Part shown: in pieces, positions 122 to 5,089 of the stretch | Layout: the number at the start of each line of letters is the position of its first letter | Position numbering within the stretch: the first letter of the stretch is position 1 | DNA from: a virus | Lineage: Duplodnaviria; Heunggongvirae; Uroviricota; Caudoviricetes | Direction: 5' to 3' (one strand) | DNA length: 5,089 nucleotides | IMG/VR virus record: IMGVR_UViG_2534682001_000016 | Position numbers and translations under genes: made by a program | The notes under the pieces: generated by a model | Database searches by the model: none | What the model saw: only the letters and a program-made list of their open reading frames with translations | Told to the model about the DNA's origin: nothing

Positions 122-175
122 CCTGTTTACCTCTTTCTCAGGGAGTTTAGTCTCCAGGATTTCCGGGGCGGTTCA
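1..175 (-). mobile_element. Terminal portion of an IS3-family insertion sequence (IS629/IS1203-like), truncated by the window edge; element terminus at about position 175
   Basis: Seen in sequence: the reverse complement of 121-175 reads TGAACCGCCCCGGAAATCCTGGAGACTAAACTCCCTGAGAAAGAGGTAAACAGG followed by ATG. It begins with the 5'-TG characteristic of IS3-family ends and leads straight into an OrfA-type transposase N-terminus. Established knowledge (from memory, not searched): IS629-type elements end in TGAACCGCCCCGG and encode OrfA starting [15 protein letters not shown]. The exact boundary (175) is inferred from the TG terminus. Confidence 0.8.
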
Positions 176-178
176 TTT

Positions 179-202
179 GCCCCGGTTATCCGGGGCTTTT
201 TT
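179..202 (+). terminator. Putative intrinsic (rho-independent) terminator-like hairpin: GCCCCGG / TTAT loop / CCGGGGC followed by TTTTTT
   Basis: Seen in sequence: perfect 7-bp GC-rich inverted repeat at 179-185 and 190-196 with a 4-nt loop, followed immediately by six T at 197-202 on the + strand. Function is inferred from the structure only. Confidence 0.5.
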
Positions 203-215
203 GCAGGTGGAGAAC

Positions 216-605
216 ATGATGTTTCTGAAACAGGGCACGTTTAATTATGAAAAGCAGTCCGTGGTGCTCAGTGAGCTGTCCGGGCTGCAGAGAATTGAAT
301 ATCTGGCGTTTGTTCAGCAGCGAACGGCAAAGTTTGATGCCGAAGAGGGAGAACTGCCGGAGGCTGAACGACAGATTGCTTTTCTGCGGATGGGGATGGA
401 TATCAATGCTTGGCTGGTTTCCCGCTCACTGTGGAATGCGGAACAGTCTCAGGATGTTGAGACGCTTTGCGCATCCGTTATTACAACATGGTCGTATGAT
501 GCCCTGGGAGCGGGGGCGGAGATGGTTCTGTCGCTGAGCGGTATGGGAGCCATTGAGAATGCCGGGGATTTGGAGCATGAGGTGCTGACGCCGGAAAAGT
601 CCTGA
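216..605 (+). CDS. G: Tail assembly chaperone, lambda gpG homolog
   Basis: ORF-track frame 177-605, which opens on TTG; the first ATGs are the tandem pair at 216 and 219. A Shine-Dalgarno-like AGGTGGAG sits at 205-212, so 219 has the better spacing and 216 is the longest ATG start. Product begins MMFLKQGTFNYEKQSVVLSELSGLQRIEYLAF, resembling lambda gpG (which starts MFLK). Stop TGA at 603-605. Position immediately upstream of a T-frame ORF and the tape measure gene matches the conserved G/GT/H arrangement. Confidence 0.88.
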   Translation: MMFLKQGTFNYEKQSVVLSELSGLQRIEYLAFVQQRTAKFDAEEGELPEAERQIAFLRMGMDINAWLVSRSLWNAEQSQDVETLCASVITTWSYDALGAGAEMVLSLSGMGAIENAGDLEHEVLTPEKS

Positions 606-943
606 CGCGGGAAATGCAGTTTGTCATGCGGCTTGCCCGGGAGTTCCGGCGGGCAGACTGGCGGCGGATGCTGTCGGAAATGTCGGCCACTGAGCTTGGT
701 GAGTGGGGCGATTATTTCCGGATGCAGAGCTTCAGTGATGTGTGGATGGATGCGCAGTTTGCCTCGCTGAAGGCATTGATCGTGAGAATGGTGTCCGGTA
801 GCAGTGATGCTGCGGTGGCTGATTTCAGCCTTTTACCGGAAGAGAACGGGATACCGGAGCGAACGGACGAAGAACTGATGCATCTTGGGGAAGGTATTTC
901 CGGAGGTGTGCGTTATGGACCAGATAGCCAACCTGGTCATTGA
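216..943 (+). CDS. T: Tail assembly chaperone fusion protein gpG-T, made by programmed -1 ribosomal frameshift near 593-599; the T part has no independent start requirement
   Basis: Seen in sequence: the G frame (codons start at positions divisible by 3) ends with ACG CCG GAA AAG TCC TGA at 588-605. The -1 frame is open from 581 (preceded by TGA at 578-580) through the stop TGA at 941-943, so the open overlap is 581-602. Candidate slippery heptamer G GAA AAG at 593-599. Established knowledge: lambda makes gpGT by a -1 shift at G GGA AAG near the end of G (Levin, Hendrix and Casjens), and this is conserved across long-tailed phages. The ORF-track entry 614-943 is the T-frame segment from its first internal Met. 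Confidence 0.72.
593..599 (+). promoter_or_regulatory. Candidate -1 programmed frameshift slippery site (G GAA AAG) for G-T synthesis
   Basis: Seen in sequence at 593-599, inside the only window (581-602) where both the G frame and the T frame are open. It differs from the lambda heptamer GGGAAAG by one base (GGAAAAG). The A-site AAG to AAA re-pairing is canonical; the P-site GAA to GGA re-pairing needs a G:U pair at the middle position. Confidence 0.55.
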
Positions 944-3900
944 TTTGGGGATTGATGCGGCAGAGTTTAAAAATGAAATTCCCCGTATCAAAAACCTTCT
1001 GAATGGTGCAGCCAGCGATGCAGAACGGTCTTCTGCCCGTATGCAGCGTTTTATGGAGCGTCAGACTCAGGCCGCCCGGCAGACAATGCAGGCGGCTTCT
1101 TCGGCTGCAACAGCCGCATCCGTCCATGCGCAGACGGTGGAGAAGAGCGCACAGGCTCATGAACGCATGGCCCGCGAGGTGGAGCAAACCCGCCAGCGTA
1201 TGGAGGCACTGAGCCAGAAAATGCGCGAGGAACAGGCGCAGGCCATGGCTCTGGCGGAGGCTCAGGATAAAGCGGCTGCTGCGTTTTATCGTCAGATTGA
1301 CAGTGTGAAACAGGCCGGTGCGGGGCTGCAGGAATTACAGCGTATTCAGCAACAGATCCGACAGGCCAGAAACAGTGGCGGGATTGGTCAGCAGGATTAT
1401 CTGGCGCTGATTTCTGAGGTTACGGCGAAAACCCGTGTTCTTACACAGGCTGAGGAAGAGGCTACCCGACAGAAAGTGGCGTTTATCCGTCAGCTTAAAG
1501 AGCAGGCAACCCGCCAGAATCTTTCTTCTTCTGAGTTGCTTCGTGCTAAGGCTGCCCAGCTGGGGGTAAGCAGTGCTGCAGAAGTGTATATCCGCAAAAT
1601 GGAGCAGGCAGGAAAAGCCACGCATTCGCTGGGTCTGAAAAGTGCAGCAGCCCGTCAGGAGATAGGCGTTCTGATAGGTGAACTGGCCCGCGGCAATTTA
1701 GGTGCGCTGAGGGGATCCGGAATAACGCTGGCTAACCGTGCCGGGTGGATAGACACACTGATGTCACCGAAAGGCATGATGCCAGGAGCGGTTATTGGCG
1801 GTATTGCCGCGGCTGTCTATGGTCTGGGTAAAGCCTGGTATGACGGTCAGAAGGAGGGGGAAGAATTTAACCGCCAGCTGTCGCTGACGGGGCATTATGC
1901 CGGAGTCACTGCCGGGCAGCTGTGGACGCTCAGTCGTGCTATTTCCGGGAATGGTATCACGCAACATGCTGCAGCCGGTGCGCTGGCTCAGGTGGTGGGG
2001 AGTGGTGCATTTCGTGGAAACGATATCGGTATGGTGGCGAGAGCTGCCGCACAGATGGAGCGATCGGTTGGCCAGTCGGTCAGCGATACCATAAATCAGT
2101 TTAAGCGGCTGAAGGATGATCCTGTAAATGCCGCGAAGGCTCTGGACAATGAGCTGCATTTTCTTACTGCCACTCAGCTTGAGCAGATACGCGTCCTTGG
2201 GGAGCAGGGGCGGTCCAGTGATGCTGCACGGATAGCCATGTCTGCACTGGCAGAGGAAACCGGTCGGCGTACTGCGGATATTGATAATAACCTCAATGCG
2301 CTTGGCAGTACGCTGAAGTATCTGTCTGATTTGTGGAGTCGTTTCTGGGATGCGGCCATGAATATTGGTCGTGAAGACTCGCTGGATGAACAGATTGCCG
2401 CTTTACAGGAGAAAGTGTCGCGGGCGAAAAGACTCCCCTGGACGGCATCATCTTCTCAGGTTGAATACGATCAGCAGCGTCTTAACGATCTTCAGGAGAA
2501 AAAACGCCAGAAGGATTTGCAGGATGCAAAAGAGCAGGCAGAGCGGAATTATCAGGAGCAACAGAAACGCCGTAATGCTGAAAATGCTGCACTGAACCGG
2601 ATGAATGAAACGGAAGCAGCACGACATCAGCGTGAAATAGCGCGTATTAATGCCATGCAGTACGCCGATCAGGCTGTCAGGGATGCGGCGATACAACGTG
2701 AAAATGAACGTTACGAGAAAGCCCTGGCATCCGGTAAGAAAAAAACACGCGAAACCCGTAATGATGAGGCCACCCGGTTATTGCTGCAGTACAGTCAGCA
2801 ACAGGCACAGGTGGAAGGACAGATTGCTGCTGCCAGACAGTCAGCAGGCATTGCCACGGAAAGGATGACAGAAGCGCGTAAACAGCTTCTGGCTCTGCAG
2901 CAGCGCATCAGCGACCTGGACGGGAAAAAACTGACGGCAGATGAAAAGAGTGTGCTGGCCCGTAAAGATGAACTGATTCAGGCACTGACGCTGCTGGATG
3001 TAAAACAGCAGGAGCTTCAGAAACAGACGGCACTCAACGAGCTGAAGAAAAAAACAATTCAGCTGACCAGTCAACTGGCTGAAGAAGAGCGCGCTCAGCG
3101 TCAGCAACATGACCTGGATATCGCCACGGTGGGTATGGGTGATCAGCAGCGACAGCGATATCAGGTACAACTGAGTCTTCGCCAGAAATACCAGCAACAG
3201 CTGGAGCAGTTGAGGCGGGATAGTGAGCAGAAAGGGACATATAACACGGATGACTACAGAAAGGCCGAGCAGGCGCTGACGGAGAGCCTGAACCGACAAC
3301 TGAATGAGAATCGCCGTTACTGGCAACAGCTTGAAGTTGTACAGGGTAACTGGAAAAACGGAGTCCTGCGTGCATTTCAGGATTTTACCGTGGATGCAGA
3401 TAATACGGCAGAAACAGCAGAACAGGTGTTCTCGTCAGCCTTCAGCAACATGGGAAATGGCCTGGCAACTTTTGTCACTACCGGCAAACTCAATTTCAAA
3501 TCCTTCACCTCTTCTGTGCTGTCAGATATGGCGAAAATCCTGGCGCAGGCAACCATGATGAAATCGATAAAAGGGATTGGCAGTGTACTGGGATTTGATC
3601 TCAGCAGCCTTTCCCTGAATGCCAATGGGGGGATTTATCAGTCTGCTGATTTGAGTCGTTACAGTGGCACGGTGGTTAACCGTCCGACGTTTTTTGCTTT
3701 TGCAAAAGGCGCGGGTGTGATGGGGGAAGCGGGACCTGAAGCCATTCTGCCATTGCGTCGTGGTGCTGACGGTAAGCTGGGGGTTGTGGCGGATATTGGG
3801 GGTTCAGGTATGGCGATGTTTTCCCCGCAGTACAACATCGAGATCAATAACGATGGCACGAACGGGCAGATAGGTCCGGCTGCCCTGAAGGCGGTTTATG

Positions 3901-3980
3901 ACCTCGGGAAAAAAGCGGCAGCGGACTTTATGCAACAGCAGGCCCGTGATGGTGGTCGGTTAAGTGGAGCATATCGGTAA
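915..3980 (+). CDS. H: Tail tape measure protein (tail length determinant), lambda gpH homolog, about 1021 aa
   Basis: ORF-track frame 885-3980, which opens on TTG; the first ATG is at 915, preceded by GGAGG at 902-906 with 8-nt spacing. N-terminus MDQIANLVIDLGIDAAEFKNE resembles lambda gpH (remembered as MAEPVGDLVVDLSLDAARFDEQ). The C-terminus EINNDGTNGQIGPAALKAVYD...RDGGRLSGAYR is near-identical to the remembered lambda gpH C-terminus. Long Ala/Gln/Arg/Glu-rich predicted coiled-coil body typical of tape measure proteins. Overlaps the end of the T frame by 29 nt. Stop TAA at 3978-3980. Confidence 0.95.
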   Translation: MDQIANLVIDLGIDAAEFKNEIPRIKNLLNGAASDAERSSARMQRFMERQTQAARQTMQAASSAATAASVHAQTVEKSAQAHERMAREVEQTRQRMEALSQKMREEQAQAMALAEAQDKAAAAFYRQIDSVKQAGAGLQELQRIQQQIRQARNSGGIGQQDYLALISEVTAKTRVLTQAEEEATRQKVAFIRQLKEQATRQNLSSSELLRAKAAQLGVSSAAEVYIRKMEQAGKATHSLGLKSAAARQEIGVLIGELARGNLGALRGSGITLANRAGWIDTLMSPKGMMPGAVIGGIAAAVYGLGKAWYDGQKEGEEFNRQLSLTGHYAGVTAGQLWTLSRAISGNGITQHAAAGALAQVVGSGAFRGNDIGMVARAAAQMERSVGQSVSDTINQFKRLKDDPVNAAKALDNELHFLTATQLEQIRVLGEQGRSSDAARIAMSALAEETGRRTADIDNNLNALGSTLKYLSDLWSRFWDAAMNIGREDSLDEQIAALQEKVSRAKRLPWTASSSQVEYDQQRLNDLQEKKRQKDLQDAKEQAERNYQEQQKRRNAENAALNRMNETEAARHQREIARINAMQYADQAVRDAAIQRENERYEKALASGKKKTRETRNDEATRLLLQYSQQQAQVEGQIAAARQSAGIATERMTEARKQLLALQQRISDLDGKKLTADEKSVLARKDELIQALTLLDVKQQELQKQTALNELKKKTIQLTSQLAEEERAQRQQHDLDIATVGMGDQQRQRYQVQLSLRQKYQQQLEQLRRDSEQKGTYNTDDYRKAEQALTESLNRQLNENRRYWQQLEVVQGNWKNGVLRAFQDFTVDADNTAETAEQVFSSAFSNMGNGLATFVTTGKLNFKSFTSSVLSDMAKILAQATMMKSIKGIGSVLGFDLSSLSLNANGGIYQSADLSRYSGTVVNRPTFFAFAKGAGVMGEAGPEAILPLRRGADGKLGVVADIGGSGMAMFSPQYNIEINNDGTNGQIGPAALKAVYDLGKKAAADFMQQQARDGGRLSGAYR

Positions 3981-4309
3981 TGGAGACGTTTCACTGGAAA
4001 GTGCGCCCGGATATGAATGTGGTATCAGAGCCGAAAGTGGTGACAGTGAAGCTGGGCGATGGTTATGAACAGCGTCGTGCGGCGGGACTGAATAACCAGT
4101 TGTCGACTTACAGCGTGACGATACGTGTTCGTAAATGTGAACACCCATCTTTAAAAGCCTTTCTGGAACGGCACGGTGGCGTCCGTGCATTTCAGTGGAC
4201 GCCACCTTATGACTGGAAACCGATCAGGGTGGTTTGTCGTAAATGGTCGGCAAGCGTGGGGGCGCTGTGGGTAACCATAACGGCAGATTTTGAACAGGTC
4301 GTGGCATAG
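3980..4309 (+). CDS. M: Minor tail protein, lambda gpM homolog (tail tip assembly)
   Basis: 109-aa ORF starting METFHWKVRPDMNVVSEPK and ending ADFEQVVA. It matches the remembered lambda gpM (MKTFRWKVKPGM ... WTPPY ... EFEQVV), including the conserved GDGYEQR and WTPPYDWK motifs. The ATG overlaps the H stop in a TAATG arrangement at 3978-3982. Stop TAG at 4307-4309. Confidence 0.93.
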   Translation: METFHWKVRPDMNVVSEPKVVTVKLGDGYEQRRAAGLNNQLSTYSVTIRVRKCEHPSLKAFLERHGGVRAFQWTPPYDWKPIRVVCRKWSASVGALWVTITADFEQVVA

Positions 4310-4318
4310 GAGGCTCTG

Positions 4319-5017
4319 ATGCAGGATATTCCACAGGAAACACATCATGAGACGACACGCCTCACTCAGTCAGCCCAGGCGGTGCTCTGGGAAATCGATC
4401 TGACAGAGGTCGGTGGTGAACGTTATTTTTTCTGTAATGAGCAGAACGAAAAAGGTGAGCCGGTTACCTGGCAGGGGCGGCAGTATCAGGCATACCCCAT
4501 TCAGGGGACGGGATTTGAACTGAACGGCAAGGGCAGTTCTGCCCGTCCGACACTGACGGTTTCTAACCTGCACGGCATGGTCACGGGGATGGCGGAAGAC
4601 CTGCAGAGTCTGGTCGGCGGAACGGTGGTCCGGCGTAAGGTTTACGCCCGTTTTCTGGATGCGGTGAACTTCGTCAACGGAAACAGCGACGCCGATCCGG
4701 AGCAGGAGGTGATCAGCCGCTGGCGCATTGAGCAGTGCAGCGAACTGAGCGCGGTGAGTGCCTCTTTTGTACTGTCCACGCCGACGGAAACGGACGGCGC
4801 TGTTTTTCCGGGACGTATCATGCTGGCCAACACCTGCACCTGGACCTATCGCGGCGATGAGTGCGGTTATCACGGTCCGGCGGTCGCGGATGAATATGAC
4901 CAGCCAACGTCCGATATCACGAAGGATAAATGCAGCAAATGCCTGAGCGGTTGTAAGTTCCGCAATAACGTCGGCAACTTTGGCGGCTTCCTTTCCATTA
5001 ACAAACTTTCGCAGTAA
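4319..5017 (+). CDS. L: Minor tail protein, lambda gpL homolog (tail tip; C-terminal Cys-rich iron-sulfur cluster region)
   Basis: 232-aa ORF with a strong Shine-Dalgarno AGGAGG at 4308-4313, 5 nt before the ATG at 4319. Position after M and before K matches lambda order. C-terminal segment contains five cysteines (TCTW, ECGY, KCSKC, SGCK), consistent with the cysteine-rich region that binds an Fe-S cluster in lambda gpL-type proteins. Stop TAA at 5015-5017. Confidence 0.93.
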   Translation: MQDIPQETHHETTRLTQSAQAVLWEIDLTEVGGERYFFCNEQNEKGEPVTWQGRQYQAYPIQGTGFELNGKGSSARPTLTVSNLHGMVTGMAEDLQSLVGGTVVRRKVYARFLDAVNFVNGNSDADPEQEVISRWRIEQCSELSAVSASFVLSTPTETDGAVFPGRIMLANTCTWTYRGDECGYHGPAVADEYDQPTSDITKDKCSKCLSGCKFRNNVGNFGGFLSINKLSQ

Positions 5018-5022
5018 ATCCC

Positions 5023-5089
5023 ATGACACAGACAGAATCAGCGATTCTGGCGCACGCCCGGCGATGTGCGCCAGCGGAGTCGTGCGGCT
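5023..5089 (+). CDS. K: Minor tail protein, lambda gpK homolog (tail tip assembly; MPN/JAB plus NlpC/P60-type protein), 3' partial: first 22 codons only
   Basis: ATG at 5023 gives MTQTESAILAHARRCAPAESCG, which matches the remembered N-terminus of lambda gpK essentially residue for residue. The ORF runs off the right edge. Not in the ORF track because it is truncated. Confidence 0.85.
   Translation, partial: MTQTESAILAHARRCAPAESCG

Follow-up and report, generated by a model that had tools for sequence, protein, structure and literature searches.

The DNA stretch analysed here, 5,089 nucleotides of the viral record IMGVR_UViG_2534682001_000016 (hereafter the window), encodes a tail tape measure protein (TMP) of the phage lambda gpH family, and it raises the question why this protein is so much longer than gpH itself. 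The original prediction, which was made from the sequence alone, held that the difference resides in an expanded low-complexity coiled-coil segment near the N-terminus. Our findings place the extra length in one discrete block of 181 residues and show that this block is a conserved part of many related proteins. Altogether, the window encodes a TMP with a long N-terminus, this N-terminus contains a conserved helical module of 181 residues, and we consider it likely that the module contributes to tail length as part of the molecular ruler.

A tape measure protein of the lambda gpH family

The tail tape measure gene occupies positions 915-3980 of the plus strand, with an ATG at 915, a stop codon at 3978-3980 and a product of 1021 residues. 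The RefSeq annotation and the open reading frame (ORF) map agree on the start, and a Shine-Dalgarno sequence, GGAGG, is located at 902-906 with a spacer of 8 nucleotides to the ATG. In RefSeq, the locus is 100% identical in Escherichia coli O157:H7 strain PA11, where the product is listed as WP_000371994.1. The assignment to the lambda family made in the original prediction is borne out by every profile collection that was searched. Specifically, Pfam assigns residues 228-426 to TMP_2 (PF06791; 167.4 bits against a gathering cut-off of 30.2), 616-693 to TMP_4 and 811-885 to Tape_meas_lam_C (PF09718; 78.3 bits against a cut-off of 23). NCBIfam TIGR01541 matches residues 656-981 with 284.4 bits (cut-off 104.75), and phrog_24 matches the full length of the protein; this profile also covers the N-terminal segment, with residues 22-269 on profile positions 41-300. 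The gene order G-T-TMP-M-L is also that of the family, as judged from the ORF map, the RefSeq annotation and a GGAAAAG heptamer with an open -1 frame. Residues 986-1016 match the C-terminal gpH chain of PDB entry 9e7m with an E-value of 1.8e-5 in a sequence comparison, and they are the putative counterpart of the C-terminal peptide that binds the tail tip in the gpI/gpL region. A helical coiled-coil rod is indicated for residues 1-322 by AlphaFold2 helices and a hydrophobic periodicity of 3.5 residues. The gene thus encodes an ordinary lambda-family TMP of the long N-terminus class, one that is already annotated and known.

The extra length forms a single block near the N-terminus

With its 1021 residues the window TMP exceeds lambda gpH (853 residues) by 168, close to the 170 or so that had been predicted. 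BLASTP aligned residues 2-56 with gpH residues 3-57 (33% identity, E-value 4e-8) and residues 287-1021 with gpH residues 106-853 (E-value 1e-51); in the comparison with gp16 of phage N15, residues 4-56 aligned with N15 residues 6-58. In gpH, Pfam places TMP_2 at residues 54-256 and Tape_meas_lam_C at 627-701. The extra length is therefore located before the core of the protein, because the offset between the window TMP and gpH is already +174 where TMP_2 starts; it is +184 at Tape_meas_lam_C and +168 at the C-terminus. The multiple alignment contains a single extra block, which comprises residues 58-238 (nucleotides 1086-1628, plus strand) and is missing in both lambda and N15, and the other differences are small. 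This block follows directly upon a conserved N-terminus, residues 1-57 (915-1085, plus strand), which is common to lambda gpH and N15 gp16 according to BLASTP and the multiple alignment. Read at profile position 2, the start of TMP_2 is residue 54 or 55 for lambda and N15, residue 194 for T1, and residue 228 for the window TMP and Gifsy-1; for phi80 and mEp043 the TMP_2 match was partial and no start was read. The distance from TMP_2 to Tape_meas_lam_C is 562-583 residues in lambda, N15, T1, the window TMP and Gifsy-1.

The pairwise and multiple alignments thus confirm that the excess is concentrated near the N-terminus, in one block and not evenly spread, and that both ends of the protein as well as a hydrophobic segment align with gpH. 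This segment, MMPGAVIGGIAAAVYGLGKAWY, was placed at residues 287-308 (1773-1838, plus strand) by BLASTP and the multiple alignment. It lies within the stretch aligned to gpH 106-142, which holds gpH 116-140, a predicted hydrophobic and putative transmembrane segment (PMC12617516). Two details of the original prediction need to be adjusted, namely the length of the conserved N-terminus, for which the alignment gives about 56 residues in place of 20, and the extent of the extra segment, which at 1086-1628 is narrower than the 975-1700 that had been proposed.

Conservation of the block among related phages

A search with the block alone retrieved 38 phage records, with block identities of 97-99% in the mEp460 group, 62-68% in Fels-1 and Gifsy-1/2, and 46-51% in phi80, mEp043/213, LLS and phages of Klebsiella, Enterobacter and Aeromonas (including Aeromonas pAEv1818). 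When 1.84 billion cluster representatives (clusters at 50% identity) were searched, the block matched 76 clusters. The 28 representatives with at least 900 residues range in length from 909 to 1168 residues, and in 24 of them the block comprises 181-202 residues, with identities that range between 27% and 62%. In the representatives P0173, P0183, P0193 and P0194 (1064-1168 residues), a longer region of 273-335 residues replaces the 181-residue block.

Several motifs are conserved within the block, namely FYRQID, QQDYLALIS and SELLRAKAAQLGVSSAAEVYIRK. The most conserved of these, SELLRAKAAQLGVSSAAEVYIRK (residues 205-228; 1527-1598, plus strand), shows a majority-residue conservation of 0.64-0.80 across 29 long-form sequences; no other part of the N-terminal third of the protein is as well conserved, and the motif is recognisable in T1 gp38 and mEp043. 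Since both sequence and length are conserved across distant phages, the block is an old, homologous and length-conserved helical module, and of the seven TMPs that were compared, lambda and N15 make up the short class. The long N-terminus subclass (the mEp460, cdtI, Gifsy and phi80 type) is characterised by about 181 residues that separate the conserved N-terminus from TMP_2, and the window TMP has such a block.

The closest relatives of the whole locus are the phages vB_EcoS-569R4, Ayreon, mEp460, Tritos and cdtI, to which positions 173-5089 of the window are 96.8-98.8% identical at the DNA level (98.7% for Ayreon). The TMP of mEp460, gp13 (YP_007112087), has 1021 residues and is 98.3% identical to the window TMP without gaps. 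Moreover, about a third of the complete E. coli genomes, 1816 of 5426, contain a region matching at least 80% of the window.

Composition and predicted structure of the block

The composition of the N-terminal region is clearly biased. Ala, Gln, Arg and Glu together account for 50% of residues 21-262 and 53% of residues 57-227, as compared to 39% of the whole protein, and the entropy in 40-residue windows is low, 3.06-3.3 bits, at residues 41-140. The coiled-coil character that had been ascribed to this region was confirmed by the hydrophobicity power at a period of 3.5 residues, which amounts to 149 over residues 15-154 and far exceeds the 95th percentile of shuffled sequences (34). Over residues 159-238 no significant signal was found at this period. 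The AlphaFold2 model (single sequence, residues 1-322) consists of one helix at residues 15-154, followed by helices at 159-200, 205-216 and 219-238, with predicted local distance difference test (pLDDT) values of about 60-92 over residues 20-230. Because the periodicity is present over residues 15-154 and absent over 159-238, only the first 100 or so residues of the block would extend the heptad coiled coil. According to the model, residues 58-154 continue an unbroken coiled coil from the N-terminus, and residues 159-238 are predicted to form shorter helices that carry conserved motifs and are not heptad-regular.

Some TMPs of mycobacteriophages and of the T5 type embed peptidoglycan hydrolase or peptidase motifs. 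No hydrolase or peptidase domain was detected in the window TMP with Pfam, NCBIfam or PHROGs, in agreement with the original prediction, which had seen no enzymatic motif in the segment. At curated cut-offs, neither Pfam nor NCBIfam reports any domain in the segment, and PHROGs reports only TMP families. When the segment alone was searched against Pfam at E-values up to 10, Lipoprotein_6 (E-values 0.014-0.025) and SMC (E-value 0.018) appeared below threshold, besides TMP fragment families. A hidden functional domain was therefore rejected, as these matches represent sub-threshold helical noise or fragments of TMP families. The overlapping ORFs on the minus strand (825-1187 and 1335-1625) and the plus strand (1003-1212) gave no family matches, and no structured RNA was found in the window at Rfam gathering thresholds.

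Possible contribution of the block to tail length

Variation in tape measure length and its tie to tail length are textbook knowledge, and the ruler principle and the deletion experiments are reportedly due to Katsura and Hendrix (1984) and Katsura (1987), both of which are cited in PMC12617516. The lambda tail tube is built from 32 rings, and the lambda tail is usually quoted as being about 150 nm long. For phage T1, whose TMP has 957 residues, about 34 tube rings with a rise of some 42 Å have been measured, which we computed to correspond to 0.149 nm per residue. For a TMP of 1021 residues, 38 rings are predicted if scaled from lambda, 36 if scaled from T1, and 35 from the two-point slope. 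On these figures, a tail that exceeds that of lambda by 10 to 20% would be plausible, with the originally predicted one-fifth as an upper bound. If the ruler principle applies, the block would lie extended inside the tube and lengthen the tail by adding rod length at the head-proximal end. This would lengthen the tail by about 25 nm and the tube by 3-6 rings, to 35-38 rings in all as compared to the 32 of lambda.

Several observations weigh against such a role in tail length. The tail of Ayreon has been described as about 120 nm long, which is shorter than that of lambda (genome announcement, PMC5764929). This value carries low weight, because no internal standard was reported; it is the only published tail length that we found for a phage with this TMP, and none was retrieved for phi80, cdtI, mEp460 or Gifsy. 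Furthermore, T1 exceeds lambda by about 140 N-terminal residues and by only about 2 rings, and a longer N-terminus may therefore not translate fully into a longer tube. In no structure is the N-terminal part of these TMPs resolved inside the tail (lambda: PMC12617516; T1). The block may either have been lost in lambda and N15 or gained elsewhere.

It is thus to be considered whether the block is mainly a functional module that adds little or no tail length, for example by offering a docking site to the G/GT chaperones or the tail terminator end, or by extending a trans-envelope conduit, which the N-terminal part of the TMP has been proposed to form after ejection. The small ring gain of T1 and the Ayreon tail would fit this possibility, and the conservation of motifs and block length down to 27% identity suggests more than the constraint on a spacer. 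In addition, lambda gpH* residues 1-319, as a hexamer model, were fitted into periplasmic channel density (PMC12617516). Nevertheless, we regard this explanation as unlikely. No domain was detected in the block, and the 0.149 nm per residue of T1 fits a fully extended helix that includes the N-terminal extension. Moreover, natural in-frame deletions of 11-47 residues are enriched in the segment and are tolerated, at least as intact ORFs, which is easier to reconcile with a length spacer than with a precise interaction domain.

These deletions were observed among the E. coli homologues with at least 88% identity, which form 120 clusters. Of these clusters, 90 have 1020-1021 residues. Altogether, 6 of the 8 distinct internal indels of at least 10 residues are located within residues 57-246 (window 1086-1652), which represent 19% of the protein (binomial P of about 8e-4, or about 3e-3 if the insertion is left out). 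Five of them are deletions (residues 59-69, 85-110, 196-229, 200-246 and 216-238), and one is an insertion of 11 residues at residue 96. The description of the segment as length-polymorphic therefore holds in part, in so far as in-frame indels cluster in it among close E. coli homologues. The deleted forms, of 974, 987, 995, 998 and 1010 residues, could conceivably be a functional allelic series, although we think this rather doubtful. If it were true, there would be a standing polymorphism in tail length among E. coli lambdoid phages, the block would be an evolvable spacer of the ruler, and the region of the conserved SELLRAKAAQLGVS motif would have a separate role.

Alternative origins of the extra length

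A recent low-complexity or repeat expansion in this lineage, by slippage or duplication, would agree with the biased composition (53% Ala, Gln, Arg and Glu), the low entropy at residues 41-140 and the clustering of indels in the block among close relatives. However, Tandem Repeats Finder detected no tandem repeats in the DNA, and the only direct repeats are two-copy families of 10-22 nucleotides at chance level. When the block was compared with the complete TMP by self-BLAST, no internal similarity was found below an E-value of 0.6, and both the sequence and the length of the block are kept across distant phages. We therefore consider an expansion highly improbable, and the description of the insert as "expanded low-complexity" does not stand in view of the lack of repeats, the conserved motifs and the length kept in 24 of 28 relatives.

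It is even harder to believe that the extra length is an artefact of annotation or assembly, such as a misassigned start codon, the fusion of two genes or the decay of a defective prophage, for, although the prophage itself is defective and contains many insertion sequence (IS) elements and a TTG at 885 would add 10 residues, the N-terminus from ATG 915 has a good Shine-Dalgarno sequence upstream and aligns residue by residue with lambda, N15, phi80 and Gifsy-1, and the identical architecture recurs in independent phage genomes, including a 98%-identical protein of 1021 residues in the plaque-forming phage Ayreon and in mEp460.

The main use of these findings is thus a correction. The extra length is a discrete, conserved and non-repetitive helical module that is common to phages of the phi80, Gifsy, mEp460 and T1 types, whereas lambda is one of the short forms. 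In addition, the block could be a convenient site for testing how N-terminal ruler length is converted into tube rings. Beyond this the significance is small, as the protein has already been annotated in RefSeq and in many phage records.

Neighbouring tail genes and the host prophage

The tape measure gene is embedded in a typical set of tail genes, all on the plus strand. The tail assembly chaperone gene G is located at 219-605 (ORF map, RefSeq gpG), and the T reading frame, -1 relative to G, at 614-943 (ORF map, RefSeq), its end overlapping the start of the TMP gene. A likely -1 slippery heptamer for the G-T fusion, GGAAAAG, is located at 593-599; it lies four bases ahead of the stop codon of G, and the -1 frame continues open into T. 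In the record of N15, this heptamer is annotated as the slippery site, whereas lambda uses GGGAAAG. The programmed G-T frameshift appears to be intact. Downstream of the TMP gene, the ORF map, phage matches and RefSeq place a gene for a gpM-like tail tip protein at 3980-4309, the start of which overlaps the TMP stop codon, and a gene for a gpL-like minor tail protein at 4319-5017.

On the minus strand, positions 1-175 represent the left end of IS1203/IS629 with its terminal inverted repeat and the start of orfA (RefSeq); matches to phages start only at 173. The terminal inverted repeat, TGAACCGCCCCGG..., extends to 175, and the start of orfA is at 138, from where it reads downward. The element thus separates the major tail gene from G. 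Several further O157:H7 genomes (e.g. E. coli strain 61_150228, same prophage, 3731-4944) have this IS1203 within the tape measure gene instead, where it follows about residue 482 and leaves two pseudogenes. The insertion sites of IS1203 therefore differ within this lineage of prophages.

The prophage of strain PA11 has a split portal gene and carries nleB2-nleC-nleH1-1-nleD downstream of the tail fibre genes. These four are type III effector genes. We take this context to match Sp3/CP-933K. Sp3 lacks repressor and replication functions, its integrase is disrupted, and neither excision and circularisation nor replication or packaging of it takes place (PMC2669165). Because the prophage is of this defective type and an IS element lies just upstream of G, the TMP at this exact locus probably makes no tails. 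Particles from this locus are therefore unlikely, and any experiment should use Ayreon and mEp460, which are viable relatives.

Comparison with known tape measure proteins

Lambda gpH (853 residues; PDB 8iyk, 9e7m) shares with the window TMP the domains TMP_2 and Tape_meas_lam_C at similar spacing (573 residues in gpH versus 583), the N-terminal 56 or so residues, the hydrophobic segment and the C-terminal tip-binding peptide. It differs in that it lacks the 181-residue block and has no match to TMP_4; a stretch of about 23 residues in gpH is replaced by other sequence in the window TMP, and the overall identity is 26%. T1 gp38 (957 residues; PDB 9l9p), from a virulent phage of the Drexlerviridae with a lambda-like tail tip, has 193 residues before TMP_2, including an ELxxLKAAELGxS motif. 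The first half of its block is weakly similar to that of the window.

In the TMPs of phi80 (1045 residues), Gifsy-1 (1031 residues), Gifsy-2, Fels-1 and mEp043/mEp213 (1086 residues), the block is found at the same position as in the window, with an identity of 48% in phi80 and mEp043/213 and the above-mentioned 62-68% in the Salmonella prophages, but the central and C-terminal regions have diverged. The mEp043 TMP combines the long block with a stretch of the lambda, N15 and T1 type, MLPAQFTD...QQGGQ..DSFGG, after the block, whereas this stretch is replaced in the window TMP, Gifsy-1 and phi80. Judged from this alignment, the mEp043 protein appears to be a mosaic within the tape measure gene. 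The viable phages mEp460, Ayreon, cdtI and Tritos have the same TMP and the same G-T-TMP-M-L order as the window. Compared to these phages, the window TMP differs by a few substitutions and lies in an O157:H7 prophage that is defective and has IS1203 inserted upstream of G.

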